Both the position numbers and the translations under genes were made by a program. DNA of 64,000 bases from assembly GCA_965220205.1 (NCBI GenBank), contig OZ244812.1:2089678-2153677 (forward strand), given 5' to 3'. The first letter of the stretch is position 1; each line of letters begins with the position of its first letter. The DNA comes from Dehalococcoidia bacterium (GTDB taxonomy: Bacteria > Chloroflexota > Dehalococcoidia > Lucifugimonadales > Australimonadaceae). The notes below the pieces were generated by a model that saw nothing but the letters and a program-made list of their open reading frames with translations, was not told the origin of the DNA and ran no database searches. Below, one piece after another: positions 4,237 through 33,014 of this stretch.

Positions 4237-5193
4237 ATGCCCGAGGGGATCATTGGCGTGACGGCGATGAGCGGGGACGCCGCCGGGGCGCTCGCTACGA
4301 TTCAGGACCTCGACCGGCGGGGAGTCCCCGCCGCGTGGCTGACCAGCGGGGGCGGGGGCGGCGATAGCCTCACGCTGTTCGCGGCTGCCGCGGCCACTAC
4401 CGAACGGGTCCTGCTCGGCAGTTGCATCGTGACCACATGGCCGCGTCATCCGGTCATCGTGGCCCAGCAGGCGCAAGTCATCGCCAACCTATCGGGCGGA
4501 CGGTTCCGGTTGGGCGTCGGTCCCGGTCACGCACAGGGGATGAGCAACACGTACGGGGCGGACTACCGCACGCCCCTGACGAACCTGCGCGAGTACATCA
4601 CCATCGCCAAAACGCTGCTGACTACAGGCGCGGTGGAGTTCGAGGGGTCGATGTACAGGGCGAACGCCAAGATTGCCGCGCCGTCGCAGGGCGTGCCCGT
4701 GATGGCTTCGGCGTTGCGGCCGCGCTCGTTCGAGCTGTGCGGGGAAGTGGCCGACGGCGCCATCAGTTGGGTGTGCCCCGGCGTGTATCTGCGGGACACC
4801 GCCCTCCCGGCGATGCAGCGCGGCGCGGCAAAGGCAGGCCGTCCGGCGCCGCCGTTGATCGCCCACACCCCTGTGTGCGTCCACGAAGACGGGGAAGAGG
4901 TCCTCGCCGCCGTACGGGAGCAGCTCTCGAACTACCCGCGTTCGCCGTTCTATCAGCTCATGTTCGCCGAGTCCGGTTTCCCGGAGGCGGCCGAGCTCGG
5001 GACGTGGAGCGCGGAGATGCTCGACGCCGTGGCGATCTGGGGCAACGAGGAGCAGGTGGCCGCGCGCATCGCGGAGCGGTTCGACTGGGGCATGGGGGAG
5101 CTGATCGCGCACGTCGTCGCGGCCGGGAGCGACCGGGACGGCTCGCGGGAGCGGTCGCTGCGACTGCTGGCGTCGCTCGCCGCTGCGCGTTGA
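4237..5193 (+). CDS. LLM-class (luciferase-like) F420-dependent oxidoreductase
   Basis: Luciferase-like monooxygenase fold sequence (FRLGVGPGH..., ANLSGGR). Start moved to the ATG at 4237 behind GAGGAGG; the upstream part of ORF 4078.. looks non-coding. Confidence 0.75.
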   Translation: MPEGIIGVTAMSGDAAGALATIQDLDRRGVPAAWLTSGGGGGDSLTLFAAAAATTERVLLGSCIVTTWPRHPVIVAQQAQVIANLSGGRFRLGVGPGHAQGMSNTYGADYRTPLTNLREYITIAKTLLTTGAVEFEGSMYRANAKIAAPSQGVPVMASALRPRSFELCGEVADGAISWVCPGVYLRDTALPAMQRGAAKAGRPAPPLIAHTPVCVHEDGEEVLAAVREQLSNYPRSPFYQLMFAESGFPEAAELGTWSAEMLDAVAIWGNEEQVAARIAERFDWGMGELIAHVVAAGSDRDGSRERSLRLLASLAAAR

Positions 5194-5268
5194 ATCCGGC
5201 CTCGCTCACACATATCATCGGTTAGCTGCGGGCGGCTACTCTCAGGCCCGCGGCACGAGGAGGAAACC

Positions 5269-5514
5269 ATGGCTACCACGCGAGCGTTCGTCTTGATGGA
5301 GACGGCGGTCGGCAAGACAAAGGACGTTGTAGAGGAACTGCGCAGCGTCGAGGCGGTGGCGTCGGTCGATGTGGTCACCGGGCCCTACGACATCATCGCG
5401 ATCATTGAAGCTCCCGACCTGAGCTCTGTCGGCGAGACGGTCACGGGCAGCGTTCACACGATAAGCGGCATCGTGCGGACGGTCACCTGCCTGGCGGTGG
5501 GCGGCAAAGCCTAG
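5269..5514 (+). CDS. Lrp/AsnC ligand-binding-domain protein (stand-alone RAM domain)
   Basis: 81 aa; AFVLMETAVGK...VDVVTGPYDIIAIIEA pattern of the AsnC-type domain. RBS GAGGAGGA. Confidence 0.7.
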   Translation: MATTRAFVLMETAVGKTKDVVEELRSVEAVASVDVVTGPYDIIAIIEAPDLSSVGETVTGSVHTISGIVRTVTCLAVGGKA

Positions 5515-5559
5515 GGCCGCGCGGCGGGAACCGTCTCCGGCCCAACACGAGGACACACG

Positions 5560-5907
5560 GTGAGCGACCAGGACTGCGTTTTCTGCAAGATAGGCCGTGG
5601 CGAGATACCGTCCGAGAAGCTGTTCGACGACGGCGTCGTGTTCGCGATTCGCGACATCAAACCCAAGGCCCCGGTCCACCTGCTGGTTATTCCGTACGCG
5701 CACGTCGAAGCGCTGACCGCCGCAAGCGAGGAGCAGATCGAGGCGGCGAGCCACTGCCTCTCCGTCGCGCCGGCGGTGGCAAGCAGCGCCGGCGGGCGCC
5801 TCGAGGGATATCGTCTGGTCGTGAATCAGGGCCCGCACTCGGGACAAGAGGTCCCGCACTTCCACTTGCACATCCTCGGCGGCCGGCCGATGGGGAGTAT
5901 GGCGTAG
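5560..5907 (+). CDS. HIT-family (histidine triad) protein
   Basis: CVFCKI... and HFHLHILGG triad motif. Confidence 0.9.
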   Translation: MSDQDCVFCKIGRGEIPSEKLFDDGVVFAIRDIKPKAPVHLLVIPYAHVEALTAASEEQIEAASHCLSVAPAVASSAGGRLEGYRLVVNQGPHSGQEVPHFHLHILGGRPMGSMA

Positions 5908-5914
5908 GCCGCCG

Positions 5915-6499
5915 GTGACGACACTGGCGCTCCCTTCGATGCTGCAAGCCCGGTTGGACGGACTGCCGGCAGGGCTCCAAGCGCACATCGAACGCGTGCG
6001 GGGCATCGCGCGGGAGCTTGCGGCGGCGCACGGCGTCGACCAGGACCTCGCCGAGCTGACGGCGGCAGCCCACGATGTGGCGCGTCACCTGCCCGGCGCA
6101 GCGCTCATCGAGGAGGCGGAACGGCTGGGCATCGCGGCCAACGCGGTGGAGCGCAGCGCGCCGATTCTGCTGCACGGGCCCGTGGGCGCTGCCTGGCTCG
6201 CCCGAGAGCGGTCGATCACCGATCCCGGCGTGCTCGAAGGCGTGCGATGGCACACCACCGCCCACCCCAGCCTCGCGCCATTGGGGCAGGTCGTGTTCAT
6301 CGCGGACAAGCTCGACCCCGCCAAGGCGAAGAGCTACCCATTCCAGGGGGAGGTGCGGGAGGCGTCGTGGCGCAGCCTGCACGACGGCATGCTGGCCTTT
6401 CTCGACGGCACGCTGCGGGCGCACCTCGACCGCGGCGGCTTGGTCCACCCCCTATGCACGGATACGCGCAACGCGCTCCTGCTGGGCGCCGCCTGCTGA
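5915..6499 (+). CDS. HD-domain phosphohydrolase, YqeK-like
   Basis: AAHDVARH (HD), WHTTAHP and IADKLDP motifs, 194 aa. Confidence 0.7.
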   Translation: MTTLALPSMLQARLDGLPAGLQAHIERVRGIARELAAAHGVDQDLAELTAAAHDVARHLPGAALIEEAERLGIAANAVERSAPILLHGPVGAAWLARERSITDPGVLEGVRWHTTAHPSLAPLGQVVFIADKLDPAKAKSYPFQGEVREASWRSLHDGMLAFLDGTLRAHLDRGGLVHPLCTDTRNALLLGAAC

Positions 6500-6511
6500 G
6501 ACAGCAGGAAA

Positions 6512-6592
6512 TCAGCACAAATGTTCGTGAGACGGGCTTGACAGTGTAGAACGCGCGTTCTAGTATGCCCGCAACACGAACATTTGTGCTGA
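6512..6592 (+). promoter_or_regulatory. sigma-70-type promoter with embedded GAAC-N4-GTTC (LexA/SOS-type) operator, bracketed by an 18-bp perfect inverted repeat
   Basis: TTGACA 6538-6543, 17-bp spacer, TAGTAT 6561-6566. Palindrome TAGAACGCGCGTTCTA 6547-6562. Inverted-repeat arms TCAGCACAAATGTTCGTG 6512-6529 and CACGAACATTTGTGCTGA 6575-6592. Confidence 0.7.
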
Positions 6593-6596
6593 TGCA

Positions 6597-7964
6597 ATGC
6601 ATAACCTCACGGCATACCAATCGGAGATCGCTCGCGCTGTCGTAGACAGCGTGCTGCACGAACGCGGACTGACCTTCACGGTCGAGATCGCCCGTGGCGG
6701 CGGCGTCCGGGAGTTGTCGTCGCAGCTCGCGCTCCTGTTGCTCAGTCTCCACGTCAACGATGGGGTGCGTCTCCTCAAGATCGGTCCCGCCGCCCGCCCG
6801 CTCAACAAGGAGCGTCTCGTCTCCCATCTGTCGAAGGGGGCGCTCTCCGGACTCTGGTCCGTGGCGGGCCGCAGCGTTACGCTGGGCCGTTCGACGCTCC
6901 AGACTCTCACGACGGACGAGCTGGGCCCCACCGTCGTTGAGCACAGCGCCAGCGCGGCAGTGCTCATCGAAGTCGTCGACGCCGAACTTATCGGGCCCGC
7001 AGTCTATGATCGCTGGATCGACCCGGTTATCGAGGCCTCGGGCGCGACGACGGTCCTCTACGGCAGGCCGCTCAACGGCGAGACCCGGTTCGAATGCCTC
7101 AAGCAGCGCAACCGCGAGCAGGAGGCGGCCGACCACGTCCGGCGTCACTTCCGCGCGCCATGGCAGGACGTTGCGGACGCGTTGCCGGCGTACGCGGCGA
7201 AGGTCGACGACGCTCGCGCCCGCCTCGGCGAAGAGCACCCCGAGTTCCAGGCGGCCTACTGCCTCAGGCCCGCGTCCGCGTGGGGCCCTCTGCTGAGCGA
7301 GGCGCAGCGCAGGCGCCTCCAGGACGGGCCGCCGCGAGCAAACGTCCCAGGCGGCGGCGAGCATGTGGCGTCGGTCGTCGTGACGCGCGCAGCGGACGCC
7401 GGCGCAACCGAGGCGCCCGCTCTGCTCGCGAGCCCCGGCGCGACGGCGGTGGTCACGGTCGCGCGCCGCCGCGAACGCGACGCGGGTCTCGACGTCGTCG
7501 CGCACCGCTGGGCGCAGGGGGTGGACGCCCCGGCCCTGGCCAAGCGGGTGGGCAAGCTCCTCTCCGACACGTGGCGCTGCAACCGCGTTGTGGTTCTGGA
7601 CCGGGCGGGGGCGGGCGCCGGGGCTACGCGCCGCCGCCATCTGCTGCAGTCCGCCCTTGGCCGAATCCCCATGCAGTGGGCGGCGGACGACGACAGGACG
7701 GAGTCCCGCATGGCCTCCGACCTGCTCGCCGCGGTCAATACCCGCCGCCTCAGCCTCTATCCGGCCGACTGTTCGCCCGAGTCCCGGGCCATCGGCCACG
7801 AGCTCCGCACAGCCGTTGCGGTCCGCGCCGGCGATGGCCGCACGCACGTCGTCGTCCCGTCGGGGGACGAAGGGTTCCTCCGTGGCGTCCTGCTCCTTTC
7901 GGGCTTTGCAGGCCCGGCCGGACAGGCAACCGCGGACGAGCCGGAGACAGCACTCGCGTCGTAG
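6597..7964 (+). CDS. hypothetical protein, terminase-large-subunit-like architecture (by-eye similarity only)
   Basis: 455 aa. N-terminal LTAYQSEIARAV..., degenerate P-loop position ARGGGVRE, Walker-B-like VLIEVVDAE, C-terminal RVVVLDRAGAGAG and VVPSGDEGFLRGVLLL resembling the TerL nuclease-domain layout. Sits directly behind the SOS-type promoter. Confidence 0.55.
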   Translation: MHNLTAYQSEIARAVVDSVLHERGLTFTVEIARGGGVRELSSQLALLLLSLHVNDGVRLLKIGPAARPLNKERLVSHLSKGALSGLWSVAGRSVTLGRSTLQTLTTDELGPTVVEHSASAAVLIEVVDAELIGPAVYDRWIDPVIEASGATTVLYGRPLNGETRFECLKQRNREQEAADHVRRHFRAPWQDVADALPAYAAKVDDARARLGEEHPEFQAAYCLRPASAWGPLLSEAQRRRLQDGPPRANVPGGGEHVASVVVTRAADAGATEAPALLASPGATAVVTVARRRERDAGLDVVAHRWAQGVDAPALAKRVGKLLSDTWRCNRVVVLDRAGAGAGATRRRHLLQSALGRIPMQWAADDDRTESRMASDLLAAVNTRRLSLYPADCSPESRAIGHELRTAVAVRAGDGRTHVVVPSGDEGFLRGVLLLSGFAGPAGQATADEPETALAS

Positions 7965-28247: not shown

Positions 28248-29519
28248 ATGGCGACGACGACGACGGAGCTGATCGCCAAGGCTGAGGCGGCGCGAGGGGC
28301 CGCCAAGGAGTTGCGGAAGCTCTCTACGGGGCAGAAGAACGCCGCGCTGCGGGCCATCGCCGACGCGCTCGACGCGAACCACGATTCGATCATCGAGGCG
28401 AACGCGCTGGACATGGAGGCGGGCCGCGAGTCCGGGCTGAGCGAGGCCGTCCTAGGACGGCTGCTCCTCGACGAATCTCGGCTGACGGGCATGGCGAACG
28501 ACCTGCGGGCCATCGCCTTGCTGCCCGACCCGGTCGGCGAAAGCTTCGACTCCCGTACTCTGGGGAACGGGATGAGGATAGAGCGCCGCCGCGTGCCGCT
28601 GGGCGTGATCGGCTGCGTGTACGAGAGCCGACCCAACGTGACGACGGACATCGCGGCGCTCTGCTTGAAGTCGGGAAACGCGGTGGTGCTGCGCGGCGGC
28701 AAGGAAGCCGTCCACTCCAACGCCGCGCTGGCGGGGCTGGTGAAGGAGGGGTTGGAATCAGCCGGGGCGCCGCCCGAGGCGGTGCAGTTCGTCACGGATA
28801 CGGACCGAGCGGTCGTCGAACAGATGATCAAGATGAACGAGCACCTGGACCTCTTCATCCCGCGAGGGGGCGAGGGGCTCATCAAGTACGTTCGGGACAA
28901 CGCGACGGTGCCGGCTATCACCGGCGGCATCGGCGTCGTCCATGCGTACGTCGACGCGTCGGCGGACGTGGAGAAGGCCCAGGACATCGTGTTCAACTCC
29001 AAGACGCAGCGGCCCGACGTGTGCAACGCGCTCGATACGCTGCTCGTACACTCCTCCGTCGCCGCGTCGCTTCTGCCGTCGGCGGCCTCGAAGCTGACGT
29101 CGGCCGGGGTCGAGCTCCGGTGCGACCGGCGGGCGCTGTCGCTGATTGGCCCCATGGGGGAGGCGGTCCAGGCGGCGGCGCCGGAGGACTTCGGCCAGGA
29201 GTTTCTCTCGCTGACGATGTCGGTCCGGGTTGTGGACTCGCTCGACGAGGCGCTCGGTCACATCGAGGCCTACGGCTCGGGGCACACGGAGACGATTCTC
29301 ACGGAGGACTACTCGGCGGCGACCCGGTTCGTTGACGAGGTGGACGCCGCTGTGGTGCTGGTGAACGCGAGCACCCGTTTCAACGACGGGGGCGAGCTCG
29401 GGCTCGGAGCGGAGGTGGCCGTCAGCACGAACAAGCTCCACGCGCGCGGTCCTATGGGGCTGCGCGAGCTCACGAGCTACAAGTGGGTTGCTCTTGGAAA
29501 CGGTCAGATCCGGCCATAG
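28248..29519 (+). CDS. proA: glutamate-5-semialdehyde dehydrogenase
   Basis: 423 aa, aldehyde dehydrogenase fold with VCNALDTLLVH active-site Cys region. Adjacent to proB. Confidence 0.93.
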   Translation: MATTTTELIAKAEAARGAAKELRKLSTGQKNAALRAIADALDANHDSIIEANALDMEAGRESGLSEAVLGRLLLDESRLTGMANDLRAIALLPDPVGESFDSRTLGNGMRIERRRVPLGVIGCVYESRPNVTTDIAALCLKSGNAVVLRGGKEAVHSNAALAGLVKEGLESAGAPPEAVQFVTDTDRAVVEQMIKMNEHLDLFIPRGGEGLIKYVRDNATVPAITGGIGVVHAYVDASADVEKAQDIVFNSKTQRPDVCNALDTLLVHSSVAASLLPSAASKLTSAGVELRCDRRALSLIGPMGEAVQAAAPEDFGQEFLSLTMSVRVVDSLDEALGHIEAYGSGHTETILTEDYSAATRFVDEVDAAVVLVNASTRFNDGGELGLGAEVAVSTNKLHARGPMGLRELTSYKWVALGNGQIRP

Positions 29520-29541
29520 ACGCCGGCGGAAGGTGGGCGCG

Positions 29542-29862
29542 ATGCTTCGATTCGAACGGGAATGTCGTACGCCGTACTCCGAGGTGTACACGATCCTCGA
29601 CGACGACCAGCCCCAAGGCCGGTTCGACGTCCACTACGCGGGCGCGATCATTCACGGGACGCTGTGCGTCTCGGAGCGGTACACACAGGACGAGATACAA
29701 GACCTGATCGAGGACCTCGACGACGAGCTGCTCGACGCGGTCGGTCTAGCGCGGGAGGACTTCATCGTCCACGTTCACCAGGGCCGCGAGGTCGGCGTGT
29801 TCTCGAACAGCGAGTACAGCGAAGACGAGCAGGACGAAGAGAACCCGATTACGGAGAACTAG
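29542..29862 (+). CDS. hypothetical acidic protein (106 aa)
   Basis: ATG behind GGAAGGTGG. Acidic C-terminal tail. Stop lies in CTAG at the MITE border. Confidence 0.45.
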   Translation: MLRFERECRTPYSEVYTILDDDQPQGRFDVHYAGAIIHGTLCVSERYTQDEIQDLIEDLDDELLDAVGLAREDFIVHVHQGREVGVFSNSEYSEDEQDEENPITEN

Positions 29863-30051
29863 GGAACCTCTGAACAATCGCTGATGCCCTCAGCAGGCCC
29901 CTCCTCCGTCATTCCCGCGCAGGCAGGAATCCAGGGCGGGGGGCGTGGGTTCCCGTGTCGGGGCACGAGAACGACGAGGGGGGCGTCCGTTCGTGGGACC
30001 CTTCGACGAGCTCAGGGCGAACGGATGGGGACGGAGCTATTCAGAGGTTCG
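29863..30051. mobile_element. composite MITE (IS5-type termini, internal REP units)
   Basis: Left GGAACCTCTGAACAA after CTAG. Internal GTCATTCCCGCGCAGGCAGGAATCC and TTCGACGAGCTCAGGGCGAACGG units. Right TTCAGAGGTTC is degenerate. Confidence 0.75.
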
Positions 30052-30065
30052 CCGGGACGACGCGG

Positions 30066-30911
30066 ATGATTGTCGACTTCCACACGCACATCCTGCCCCC
30101 GGCGTTCCGCGGCCGGAGGGCCGCCGTCGCCGAGCGGGACGCGACGTTCCGGGCGCTGTTCCCGACGGACGGCGCAGGGATGGCGACTGCCCCCGAGCTG
30201 ATCAAGGCCATGGACGAGGACGGCGTGGACGTGTCGGTCGTGCTCGGCTACGGCTGGAGCGACCGCGACGTCGCGCGGGAGGCGAACGACTACCTGTTGG
30301 AGTCGGCGGCGCGCTACCCCGGGCGGATCGTCCCGTTCTGCAGCCTGCACCCGGCGTGGGGCGGCGAGGCGATGCGGGAGTTGGAGCGCTGCGCCGACGG
30401 AGGCGCGCGGGGCATCGGCGAGCTGCACCCGACGTCGCAACAGCTGCGGCTGGCGAGCGACGAGAGCCTGGACCCGGTGATGGCGTTCGCCAAGCAGCGC
30501 GACATGCCGGTGGTCGTCCACGGCTCGGAGCCGGTCGGCCACGGGTACGCAGGCAAGGGCGCCACCCACCCGGAAGAGCTGCTGGCGTTCGCGGAGCGCT
30601 ACCCGGAAGCGCGGATCGTCGCGGCGCACTGGGGCGGTGGCCTGCCGTTCTACGCGCTGATGCCGGAGGTGCGCCGCTCGCTCGCTAACGTCCTGTTCGA
30701 CTCGGCGGCGTCGCCGTTCCTGTACGACGCGGCGGTGTTCCCCACCGTGGCGCTCGCGGTCGGCGCCGACCACGTGCTGTTCGGTTCGGACTACCCGCTG
30801 CTGCGCGCCCGGCGAGTCGCCGAGCAGGCGTCCGCGAATCTCACGGAGTGTGAGGCTTCGGCGGTGCTGGGCGGGAACGCCGCGCGGCTGTTGGGGCTGG
30901 CCGGTAACTGA
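30066..30911 (+). CDS. amidohydrolase-family (TIM-barrel metal-dependent) hydrolase
   Basis: MIVDFHTHILPP metal-binding start, HWGGG and GSDYPL motifs. Confidence 0.82.
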   Translation: MIVDFHTHILPPAFRGRRAAVAERDATFRALFPTDGAGMATAPELIKAMDEDGVDVSVVLGYGWSDRDVAREANDYLLESAARYPGRIVPFCSLHPAWGGEAMRELERCADGGARGIGELHPTSQQLRLASDESLDPVMAFAKQRDMPVVVHGSEPVGHGYAGKGATHPEELLAFAERYPEARIVAAHWGGGLPFYALMPEVRRSLANVLFDSAASPFLYDAAVFPTVALAVGADHVLFGSDYPLLRARRVAEQASANLTECEASAVLGGNAARLLGLAGN

Positions 30912-30933
30912 CGAGCCGACAGTCAACCGCTAC

Positions 30934-31971
30934 TTATTTCCGCAGCGCTCTCTCCAGCTCTGCTAAGAAGATCGTCGTGTCTGCCATATAATTCGGGTAT
31001 ATTTTTCGTAAGTCTTTCAGTGATTGAGTAGATGCCAACAGCACATCCTTGTTCAGGTCTGTCCTGTAGGTAGACTCCAACTCAGCCAACCGCGACGAAG
31101 CTAATTCGGATTCGCGCTTGGGGAAGGAGTGGATAGTCATCAAATGCGTAGAGCTGTCCAATTCGATCAGGTAGTGATACGCATTCTTTGTTCGTTGTCC
31201 TTGGTGGTAGTGAGCCGCCGCGCGGATTGCGCGTAACCGATCTCTTACGTTGAGGTCGCGCTCCAACTCCCTAATCTCATTGACTATCTCGTCTTGCCTC
31301 TCTGGAGTTCCTGGGACTAGTGGTGTATGTTCGCGTATAGCTAGCATACTCCCCATAAGTGCAAAGAATCGCTCCCAGTTATCTGACCCCTGATGTATCT
31401 TCAGCAGCTGTTTCGCGAATGTATCCACCGTTTCTACTGCAGTGGCCCAACAGTGCTGGTAACGTGACCGTATTTGTATTTCTATCCGCTGTCCATCGTA
31501 TTGCGACGAGTGATCGCTGCGATAGTGATAGACCAGGTGGATACTTCGATAGCCGAACTTGTTGGGAAGCTCAATATGGTTCGTAACATGGTCTAATTCA
31601 TGCCTGATTCGACCTGTTTGGTATTTGGCAGCCAAGGCATTGGCTGCACGTGTAGATGCTACGACCGCTCGACATCCAGCGATATCCTGCATAGTTGATA
31701 GCGATACGTTCTTCAAGCGACGCAACTTCGATTCTATCGCAGGAAGTCGCTTGACGCGCTGTGCGATAGGTGGGCTTCTACGGTCAACCTCTCTGGCTTT
31801 GTCCCGAAGGCGCATCTGCATAGTGTTGAGCGGGAAGGCGTGCGCTGCACGCCAGTTGTTCACCACCACTAGTGCCGCATCGATGTCTGACTGCGAGGAG
31901 CGTTTCGAAATTAGGCGACGCCCAGCGTCGTCAATCTGGTCATCATCGTATTCGCGAATGGCCCATGTCAT
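30934..31971 (-). CDS. stand-alone RelA/SpoT-domain protein (small alarmone synthetase / toxSAS-like) with a helical C-terminal domain of about 140 aa
   Basis: All synthetase motifs present: QRVKRLPAIESKLRR, MQDIAGCRAVV, GYRSIHLVY, IEIQIRSRYQHCWATAVE. Gene lies in a markedly AT-richer segment. Confidence 0.85.
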   Translation of the reverse strand: MTWAIREYDDDQIDDAGRRLISKRSSQSDIDAALVVVNNWRAAHAFPLNTMQMRLRDKAREVDRRSPPIAQRVKRLPAIESKLRRLKNVSLSTMQDIAGCRAVVASTRAANALAAKYQTGRIRHELDHVTNHIELPNKFGYRSIHLVYHYRSDHSSQYDGQRIEIQIRSRYQHCWATAVETVDTFAKQLLKIHQGSDNWERFFALMGSMLAIREHTPLVPGTPERQDEIVNEIRELERDLNVRDRLRAIRAAAHYHQGQRTKNAYHYLIELDSSTHLMTIHSFPKRESELASSRLAELESTYRTDLNKDVLLASTQSLKDLRKIYPNYMADTTIFLAELERALRK

Positions 31972-32070
31972 ACGACAAGAATAGCCGCGTTGCTGTACAG
32001 AGTCAAGTATGCTATGGTTACTGACTAGTAACCGGAGAGAGTTGAGGTGTGAGCAGGGGAGGCTGTACTG

Positions 32071-32352
32071 ATGGTGCGTTCGTGCAGCTTGAGTTTAGGG
32101 TGCGTCGTCCTTATCTGTGCTGCTTGGATGATAACCGCTTGTGGCGGCGACCCAACTCCAACTCCAATTCCAAGTCCGAGCATATTCGCAGGGGAAGCCG
32201 CTGGGGTAATTAAGTCGACTGTAGGGTCACGGCAGGAGTGGGTTTCGACTGGAGGGAACGCCTATGCTCTATATCGTTGTACAGACATCGTGGAGCTCTT
32301 AGATCGAGCAGTATGGGAACCCTCTACGAGCTCATGGTTAGTAAGTGACTGA
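32071..32352 (+). CDS. small putative lipoprotein (93 aa)
   Basis: Signal peptide with lipobox MITAC. Low GC, like the neighbouring RelA/SpoT gene. Confidence 0.5.
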   Translation: MVRSCSLSLGCVVLICAAWMITACGGDPTPTPIPSPSIFAGEAAGVIKSTVGSRQEWVSTGGNAYALYRCTDIVELLDRAVWEPSTSSWLVSD

Positions 32353-32441
32353 TGGGAGAAATATCAGTATTGTTTATACGAGAAAACTATGACAGTCAGC
32401 GGTATCTCAGAAGCAATACCGCCGGCATGTAGATAGAGTTG

Positions 32442-33014
32442 ATGGGACCTTGGCCTACGACCGAGGCTCCAACGCTCCCCGACTACCTTCGGCCGGGGCT
32501 CGACATCGTGTTCGTGGGCATCAACCCGGGCGCGTATTCGGCGCGGGTGGGGAAGTACTTCGCGACGCCGGCCAACCGGTTCTGGCGGGCGTTGAACCGT
32601 TCGGGACTGGTGGACGCGGACCGCGAGCTCGGCCCCGGCGACGAGACGTGGCTGATGGACGCGGGGATCGGGTTCACCGACGTTGTGAAGCGGGCGAGCG
32701 GCAGCGCGTCGGACCTGCGGGCCGCGGACTTCAGGCGCTGGGCTCCGCTCACCCGGGAGAAGCTGATGGACGCCGCACCGGCCGTCGTCTGCTTCAACGG
32801 GCTCATGGGGTACCGGTGGTTCATGCAGTACGCGGAGGACACGAGAGTCAAGCCGGAGCTCGGCGAGCAGCCGGCGCCGCTCGGTCGCAGCTGCGTGTTC
32901 GTCGCGCCCAACCCGAGTCCAGCTAACGCGGCGGTCTCGCTGGACGCCATCGTCGGCTGGCACCGCAAGCTCGGCGAGCTGCGCGACCGCCTGACGGGCG
33001 CGGCGCGTGGCTGA
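32442..33014 (+). CDS. mug: G/U mismatch-specific uracil-DNA glycosylase (Mug/TDG family)
   Basis: VFVGINPG active-site motif and NPSPANA near the C-terminus. Confidence 0.88.
   Translation: MGPWPTTEAPTLPDYLRPGLDIVFVGINPGAYSARVGKYFATPANRFWRALNRSGLVDADRELGPGDETWLMDAGIGFTDVVKRASGSASDLRAADFRRWAPLTREKLMDAAPAVVCFNGLMGYRWFMQYAEDTRVKPELGEQPAPLGRSCVFVAPNPSPANAAVSLDAIVGWHRKLGELRDRLTGAARG

Follow-up and report, generated by a model that had tools for sequence, protein, structure and literature searches.

We analysed a 64,000-nucleotide stretch of the genome of a Dehalococcoidia-class member of the Chloroflexota, a marine-type genome, with attention to a small low-GC islet that lies between two native genes, an amidohydrolase gene and mug. 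"The window" refers to the whole of this stretch, and all coordinates are window positions unless a contig is named. The islet carries a gene for a 345-residue protein of the CapRel family, in which a toxic small alarmone synthetase (toxSAS) is fused to the region that neutralizes it, and a divergently oriented open reading frame (ORF) for a 93-residue lipoprotein (Table 1). An orthologous gene pair is present on two other contigs, L002 and L003. A preliminary description of the locus, made from its letters alone, had already pointed to the islet, to both genes and to several features around them; we state below, where each result is given, which of its claims stand.

Table 1. Positions of the islet, its genes and flanks, and smaller features (aa, amino acids; GC3, GC content at third codon positions).
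Feature	Coordinates	Strand	Basis or remark
Amidohydrolase gene, Amidohydro_2 family, native flank	29955..30911	+	Pfam, E = 1.4e-33; synteny with mug kept in relatives
Putative left copy of imperfect ~30-nt amidohydrolase-stop/mug-start duplication	30892..30921	+	nhmmer junction profile
Left copy of 8-bp repeat GACAGTCA	30918..30925	+	Straddles end of ancestral junction remnant
Low-GC inserted islet, ~1.52 kb, in amidohydrolase/mug interval	30922..32442		GC, GC3, junction-profile limits
CapRel-family fused toxSAS toxin-antitoxin gene, 345 aa (coordinates include stop)	30934..31971	-	PADLOC, PDB, Foldseek, PHROG
C-terminal antitoxin/sensor region (anchors and pseudo-zinc-finger), residues ~196-345	30937..31386	-	Alignment, model
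YXXY autoinhibition motif, Y325-P326-N327-Y328	30988..30999	-	Aligns with Y352-P-N-Y355 of CapRel(SJ46)
Predicted pseudo-zinc-finger (sensor) core, residues ~254-314	31030..31212	-	DSSP on model
N-terminal toxSYNTH (pyrophosphokinase) domain, residues ~1-195	31387..31971	-	Pfam RelA_SpoT; aligned catalytic residues
Promoter-like site TTGACT-17-TATTCT	31978..32006	-	Consensus scan, consensus match only
Palindrome GGTTACT-GACT-AGTAACC, divergent intergenic region	32016..32033		Direct reading
Orphan lipoprotein ORF, 93 aa, divergent: signal peptide, lipobox ITAC, Pro/Thr linker	32071..32352	+	ORF list; L002 orthologue
In-frame lipoprotein continuation past TGA, WEKYQYCLYEKTMTVSGISEAIPPACR	32353..32436	+	Aligns with uninterrupted L002 ORF tail
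Right copy of 8-bp repeat GACAGTCA	32391..32398	+	Inside tail of lipoprotein frame, codons T-M-T-V-S
mug/UDG-superfamily glycosylase gene, native flank	32439..33014	+	Pfam UDG, E = 3e-16
Putative right copy of junction duplication	32443..32474	+	nhmmer profile; new mug N-terminus MMGPWPTTE...

Composition and origin of the islet

The islet has a GC content of ~0.51 versus ~0.68 for the remainder of the window. Measured in 300-nt windows, GC drops from 0.70-0.75 to 0.49-0.55 across ~30930 to 32440, the sole trough of this kind in the 64 kb; in 1-kb bins, positions 31001-32000 have a GC content of 0.511 and all other bins lie between 0.615 and 0.733. The same difference is found at third codon positions. 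GC3 is 0.55 in the CapRel gene and 0.48 in the lipoprotein gene, against 0.87-0.92 in the native genes proA, amidohydrolase, mug and a LigT-like gene. The low-GC islet of the preliminary description is therefore borne out by measurement. Its limits were set where homology to a profile of empty-site junctions (described below) ends, at 30921, and restarts, at 32443. An independent assembly (L001, run ERR13602196) is identical to the window over 30011-32527, and thus the islet junctions are not an artefact of assembling a single data set.

The CapRel gene is missing from related genomes. A genome scan with the amidohydrolase recovered 80 loci with 46-68% protein identity, every one from Chloroflexota and most of them carrying a Dehalococcoidia or SAR202-cluster label. 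In 51 of these, mug is downstream and co-oriented, and in 36 of the 51 it is directly adjacent. None of the 80 loci has the CapRel gene, which answers the check on presence or absence that the preliminary description had proposed. In the 17 closest loci, when compared as nucleotide sequence, the ATG of mug overlaps or abuts the stop codon of the amidohydrolase gene, mostly as ATGnCTGA. The foreign composition of the islet and its absence from relatives support the conclusion that it is horizontally acquired DNA.

A fused toxin-antitoxin of the CapRel family

The 345-residue translation contains all four motifs of guanosine penta- or tetraphosphate ((p)ppGpp) synthetases that had been read in it earlier (RVKRLPAIESK, DIAGCR, YRSIH and EIQIRSRYQHCWA). 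The sole Pfam domain matched is RelA_SpoT, at residues 71-177; a hydrolase domain was not found, also as claimed. PADLOC matches one model, PDC-S33 (E = 3.8e-109, 363 bits, residues 1-343), and the characterized CapRel(SJ46), taken from its phage record, matches this model from end to end (E = 7e-87, 290 bits), so PDC-S33 is the fused CapRel family. There is also a full-length match to PHROGs family 4773 (E = 1.2e-90). The best sequence matches in the PDB are the CapRel(SJ46) entries 7ZTB and 9ERV (phmmer, E = 9e-35), in an alignment of query residues 7-339 with chain residues 14-366. The next are of RelQ/RelP type, at E = 1e-6 or weaker and in the catalytic core alone, and the NCBIfam equivalog for RelQ (YjbM), NF053588, gives 35.6 bits where its cut-off is 320.

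Predicted structure and phylogeny agree with these matches. An AlphaFold model built with 75 homologues has a mean predicted local distance difference test score (pLDDT) of 92.3 and a predicted template-modelling score (pTM) of 0.89. Its top Foldseek matches are 7ZTB and 9ERV (E ~1e-23, template-modelling score 0.68-0.71, ~355 columns), and RelQ/RelP matches follow at E ~1e-7. The root-mean-square deviation (rmsd) between the model and the open crystal form is 9.5-10.6 A. We rooted a neighbour-joining tree, calculated without bootstrap, on a RelQ-like phage protein. In it, CapRel(SJ46) nests among the homologues retrieved with the window protein, and the window protein forms a small clade with its L002 orthologue and four metagenomic sequences of 55-59% identity. 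The tree, together with the PDC-S33 match and the sequence and fold matches to 7ZTB, supports the proposal that the gene encodes a RelA/SpoT synthetase of the toxSAS kind that stands alone, lacks a hydrolase domain and has the fused architecture of CapRel. The gene is under strong purifying selection, as indicated by a ratio of nonsynonymous to synonymous substitution rates (dN/dS) of 0.075 against the L002 orthologue (dS 1.84).

The preliminary description had seen a helical C-terminal extension, perhaps of an undescribed type. Neither part of this claim is supported. The C-terminal region aligns over its whole length with CapRel(SJ46) residues ~210-366, including the YXXY motif and the strand that supports it. 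In the model, this part combines helices with a sheet of three strands into which a helix is inserted, and DSSP assigns strands to 264-272 and 277-284, a helix to 285-302 and a strand to 308-314. This arrangement is the one that defines a pseudo-zinc-finger, which is the predicted fold of model residues 264-314. The strand-strand-helix-strand topology is likewise that of CapRel(SJ46), and the fold match to 7ZTB/9ERV is full-length. Because its sequence and fold match those of CapRel(SJ46), we do not regard the C-terminal domain as a new type.

The residues that matter for autoinhibition of CapRel(SJ46) are largely present. Zhang et al. 2022 (PMC9712102) assign adenine coordination to R79 and R116 of that protein, name Y155 as its G-loop tyrosine, and describe Y352xxY355 as the motif that, in the closed state, obstructs the ATP site, with V338, L339 and their neighbours as its scaffold. 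R79, R116 and Y155 align with R72, R101 and Y141 of the window protein. Of five scaffold and interface residues, A77, V338 and L339 are kept as A70, V310 and L311, and the other two, A341 and A351, are replaced (see below). An alignment of 75 homologues has no variation at R72, R101, Y141, P326 or Y328, and Y325 and N327 show conservation of at least 90%. The model places a four-residue helix, 326-329, on the YXXY motif, which is consistent with the 3-10 helix of the neutralizing state described in PMC11782079. Residues 256-300, with majority-residue frequencies of 0.42-0.48, are the least conserved stretch of the family; the catalytic blocks reach 0.84-0.91 and the surroundings of YXXY 0.73. 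A variable pseudo-zinc-finger with a conserved YXXY block is the pattern reported for CapRels (PMC9712102).

Fused and divided forms of this toxin-antitoxin are both known. CapRel(SJ46), from Salmonella phage SJ46, is like the window protein a single polypeptide with no separate antitoxin gene (Zhang et al. 2022, PMC9712102). The two have a common layout of N-terminal toxSYNTH domain, helical anchors, pseudo-zinc-finger and C-terminal helix, and they have in common the two ATP-site arginines, the G-loop tyrosine and the YPNY motif. However, BLASTP identity is 29% (residues 7-335), the window protein is 28 residues shorter, mostly by deletions around the pseudo-zinc-finger, and the pseudo-zinc-finger sequences are essentially unrelated. 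CapRel(SJ46) is encoded on an enterobacterial prophage, whereas the gene described here is chromosomal, in a 1.5-kb islet of a member of the Chloroflexota. In the bicistronic CapRel/PhRel systems, capRel:aTcapRel of Mycobacterium sp. AB308 and gp29:gp30 of phage Phrann, a related toxSYNTH toxin is paired with an antitoxin that is homologous to the fused C-terminal domain, but the two are separate genes (Jimmy et al. 2020, PMC7229694).

Two further systems help to place the protein. In FaRel2:ATfaRel2 of Coprobacillus sp. D7, a YXXY 3-10 helix stacks on two arginines of the ATP-donor site (PMC11782079). FaRel2 is a tRNA-targeting toxSAS, and the same neutralizing and arginine residues are present in the window protein. 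ATfaRel2 differs in being a trans-acting, circularly permuted antitoxin that assembles into a heterotetramer, and no match between the window protein and FaRel2:ATfaRel2 was detected in the PDB sequence search. RelQ and RelP (PDB 5DEC, 6EWZ) have the synthetase fold and motifs in common with the window protein. The similarity is confined to a catalytic core of ~125 residues (E ~1e-6 by sequence, ~1e-7 by fold), and RelQ and RelP are without a C-terminal autoinhibitory domain.

The family is already catalogued, both as a candidate single-gene defence system (PDC-S33) and as a phage protein family (PHROG 4773). The window protein matches each over its full length; both are catalogue entries without a described mechanism, and a literature search for PDC-S33 found no papers. 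Among viral contigs, a scan returned 44 homologues of 28-44% identity. A protein search of 50,697 phage records (E 1e-5) matched four: two records of SJ46, the P1-like Escherichia phage vB_EcoM-673R5 and the Streptococcus phage Javan576. None of the four is a mycobacteriophage. The homologue in vB_EcoM-673R5 (L210, 1462-2561) is annotated as two adjacent coding sequences, at 1462-2010 and 2019-2561, and was matched in two pieces. This gene may be split or frameshifted, with the toxin and antitoxin halves apart.

Insertion site and possible mobility

The preliminary description had the islet bounded by an 8-bp direct repeat, GACAGTCA. Both copies are present, and they are the only two in the window, but they do not bound the islet. 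The right copy lies within a conserved frame, homology between the window and L002 continues unbroken through the lipoprotein gene and ~110 nt into mug, and L002 has the 8-mer at the same position; the right copy is thus islet sequence rather than a target duplication. In addition, a repeat of this size is at chance level. Two boundary-sized windows had an 8-mer in common in 5% of shuffled cases, and in 24% of cases when equally spaced pairs of real sequence were drawn from the window. The 1.76-kb region contains 37 families of direct repeats of at least 8 nt. We therefore reject the repeat as a target-site duplication. No terminal inverted repeats were found at the islet, no tRNA genes nearby, and no integrase or recombinase among the islet ORFs.

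A likelier insertion scar is a duplication of the amidohydrolase/mug junction itself. An nhmmer profile built from 16 empty-site junctions matches the window twice, with profile positions 2-100 at 30823-30921 and positions 71-179 at 32443-32553. Positions 71-100 are thus matched twice, which places ~30 nt of junction on both sides of the islet. At its start, over ~10 positions, the right-hand match has low posterior probability, and a direct alignment of the left and right flanks is not significant (score 16, p ~0.25). On balance we favor an imperfect ~30-nt duplication flanking the islet, read solely from the profile coordinates. A junction duplication of this kind is what site-specific integration leaves. 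The ancestral ATG of mug is mutated in both junction copies, and the present start of mug lies 5-6 codons upstream of it, within the putatively duplicated sequence.

The orthologous islet on L002 and L003 provides a comparison. Its CapRel protein (P0002), the closest relative of the window protein, is 78% identical, and its gene context is entirely unlike that of the window. At L002 9419-9545, and equally in L003, the cassette is followed by a frameshifted and truncated 5' fragment of mug and ~17 nt of the region upstream of it, with no intact mug or amidohydrolase gene nearby. The L002 fragment starts at the same junction-profile position, 73. On the CapRel side of L002, a junction remnant is suggestive by eye, but it is not significant and we do not accept it. 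GC3 is 0.81-0.92 in both host genomes versus 0.39-0.55 in the cassette genes. It is possible, though we hold the idea only tentatively and think it rather doubtful, that the CapRel and lipoprotein genes form a 1.5-kb, integrase-less mobile defence cassette that inserts site-specifically at the overlapping amidohydrolase/mug stop/start junction of Dehalococcoidia and leaves an att-like duplication of ~30 nt. On this reading, the foreign composition of both copies despite a dS of ~1.8 would suggest repeated mobilization in trans rather than a single old insertion.

More distant relatives have other small cargo at the amidohydrolase-mug junction. This includes a restriction-endonuclease-like REase-ARP protein (L006, 2093-2944; PF22558, E = 6e-38), a weak match to a PycTM-like membrane protein (L058, 6873-7370; E = 4e-5), a DUF6946 protein (L036, 9296-9985) and an unrelated lipoprotein of ~173 residues (L043, L052, L058 and L060). 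Possibly this junction acts as a minor hotspot for genes of accessory or defensive function. A junction duplication is seen at none of the inserts just listed (L006, L058, L036, L043, L052, L060). On a 686-kb metagenomic contig (L190), a 41%-identical CapRel homologue (5001-6068) is convergent with a mug/UDG homologue (6352-6777, 32% identity); its geometry is unlike that of the window, and the adjacency is probably a coincidence. Upstream of the site in the window, between proA and the amidohydrolase gene, is an ORF for an acidic protein of 124 residues (29488-29862) without a Pfam family, which is 69-90% identical in the closest related genomes, exceeding the flanking enzymes.

Proposed function and alternatives

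We think it probable that the islet carries a one-gene, horizontally acquired toxin-antitoxin of the fused CapRel family (toxSAS; PDC-S33) that works in the following way. In the uninfected cell, the C-terminal pseudo-zinc-finger domain would fold back and the enzyme would be closed, with Y325-P-N-Y328 stacked between R72 and R101 and the ATP site blocked. During infection, binding of a phage protein to the variable pseudo-zinc-finger would keep the enzyme open. The open enzyme would then pyrophosphorylate the 3' ends of tRNAs, translation would halt, and infection would be abortive. What the sequence data establish is that the gene belongs to the family, keeps the catalytic and autoinhibitory residues, is constrained by selection, came from elsewhere and is missing from relatives. 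That the substrate is tRNA, that the enzyme switches from closed to open, that a phage protein triggers it and that it gives defence we infer from homology, and phage-triggered tRNA pyrophosphorylation leading to abortive infection is on this ground the most likely function.

Some of our observations weigh against this reading. Identity to the characterized CapRel(SJ46) is just 29-30%. Two interface residues differ, A341 and A351 of CapRel(SJ46) being replaced here by S314 and I324 (S314 is nearly invariant in the clade of the window protein). The docking of YXXY on the ATP site is only consistent with the model, through helix 326-329, the pTM and the large rmsd from the open form. Lastly, the surroundings of the islet are housekeeping genes, with no defence island.

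The last of these points also speaks for the alternative that the protein is indeed a fused CapRel toxin-antitoxin but serves islet addiction or general stress-induced growth arrest rather than phage defence. So small a cassette encodes nothing else that would maintain it, and the same two genes, foreign in composition, have lasted in two genomes, with a dS of ~1.8 between the copies. However, an antitoxin that is fused to its toxin and acts in cis is inseparable from it, and classical post-segregational killing would not apply. Characterized fused CapRels are stable, non-proteolytic sensors that are activated by phage proteins (PMC9712102), and hypervariability of the sensor region within the family is what an arms race would give. 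We consider a role other than defence unlikely.

The enzyme might also make a toxic nucleotide such as (pp)pApp, or be a regulated (p)ppGpp synthetase, and leave tRNA unmodified. Near-identical toxSYNTH cores are known to use different acceptors (PMC11782079), and the synthetase motifs found here are generic. But the closest characterized relative and its clade target tRNA, and neutralization through YXXY and a pseudo-zinc-finger is the mode of the tRNA-targeting toxSAS FaRel2 and CapRel (PMC11782079). The score of the window protein against the RelQ equivalog also speaks against a nucleotide acceptor. We regard such an activity as improbable.

To about the same small degree, we allow that the lipoprotein and CapRel genes could be a functional two-gene unit, with the lipoprotein acting for example in surface exclusion or as an envelope-linked partner. 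The ORF, already called a lipoprotein in the preliminary description, has a signal peptide and a lipobox. The divergent pair is kept in both known islets of this lineage. Between the window and L002, the proportions of nonsynonymous and synonymous differences in the lipoprotein frame are 0.34 (pN) and 0.76 (pS), a ratio of ~0.44, and third codon positions are the most variable; it appears to be a real gene, weakly constrained. Yet a homologue of the lipoprotein occurs solely beside P0002, on L002 and L003, and beside none of ~125 other members of the CapRel family, and we reject it as a general partner of the family. An in-frame stop in the window removes its conserved tail. The frame is broken by a TGA at 32350-32352, present in two assemblies, and the next 27 codons, ending in a TAG at 32434-32436, still align with L002; the tail was likely truncated recently by a nonsense mutation. 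The protein has no family in Pfam, PADLOC or PHROGs, and its only matches among 5.8 billion proteins were two weak ones driven by the Pro/Thr linker. A degenerate DNA pattern of its conserved motif found nothing in viral contigs, and a single-sequence structure model had a pLDDT of 45 and was unusable.

The wider family also speaks for a single gene. In 127 loci with family members there is no conserved neighbour, and no neighbouring protein occurs in more than 10 loci; we conclude that this is a one-gene system. The recurrent neighbours, read by eye, look like mobile-element or prophage genes, with methylase-like, repressor-like and transposase-like products. The commonest, downstream in 10 of the 127 loci (e.g., L089, L095, L096, L111, L152 and L162), is a zinc-ribbon protein. 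By eye its sequence looks like an IS1595-type transposase, which, if correct, would fit frequent mobility of the gene.

The CapRel gene has a promoter-like site of its own, another point against a two-gene unit. The site ends 6 nt ahead of the CapRel ATG, and its counterpart in L002 is TTGACT-17-TATGCT, with the ATG 7 nt later. As matches to a consensus only, these sites suggest that the CapRel mRNA may be leaderless or nearly so. The palindrome noted in the preliminary description is present, 10 nt upstream of the -35 hexamer, but it is not kept in L002, the sole orthologous islet, and we reject it as a conserved operator. Another inverted repeat, GCGGTAT-N10-ATACCGC (32399-32422), is located just past the right GACAGTCA, within the dead tail of the lipoprotein frame; it is without a T-run and is not found in L002. 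A search for Rfam RNAs, as an RNA antitoxin or a sign of a mobile element, found none.

A co-oriented, antitoxin-sized gene had been said to be lacking. Strictly, this is not so: an ORF of 52 codons lies upstream of the CapRel gene in the same orientation (32025..32183, minus strand). It runs antisense to the part of the lipoprotein gene that encodes the Pro/Thr linker, and it is also open in L002 (9765-9959). The third codon positions of the two frames coincide, so that a codon-position test cannot separate them. The signal peptide, lipobox and conserved C-terminus favor the lipoprotein frame, and we do not accept the 52-codon frame as an antitoxin gene; the repetitive linker has probably produced it as a shadow ORF.

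Very improbably, the gene encodes a housekeeping small alarmone synthetase (RelQ/RelP/RelV type) or is a functionless, decaying relic: a RelA_SpoT domain without a hydrolase domain and the in-frame stop in the neighbouring gene would fit, but the gene is missing at all 80 related loci, its composition is foreign, its RelQ equivalog score is far under the cut-off, its homology to CapRel is full-length, its catalytic and regulatory residues are all intact, and its dN/dS is that of a constrained gene.

The gene in this islet is a further member of the known CapRel phage-defence family and not a new system. The gain is incremental, as the mechanism expected of the protein is the usual one for its family. 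With this gene the fused CapRel family reaches Dehalococcoidia-class Chloroflexota, and the related loci include genomes of the SAR202 cluster and other uncultivated organisms. Chloroflexota is not among the phyla listed for CapRel in the available sections of PMC9712102 and PMC7229694. The putative insertion scar and the recurrence of the cassette would offer a clean, if small, illustration of the way in which single-gene defence systems pass from genome to genome. Given the divergence of the sensor domain, the triggering protein would come from viruses of these uncultivated bacteria, and the predicted trigger could thus be a possible handle on virus-host pairs that are not culturable.

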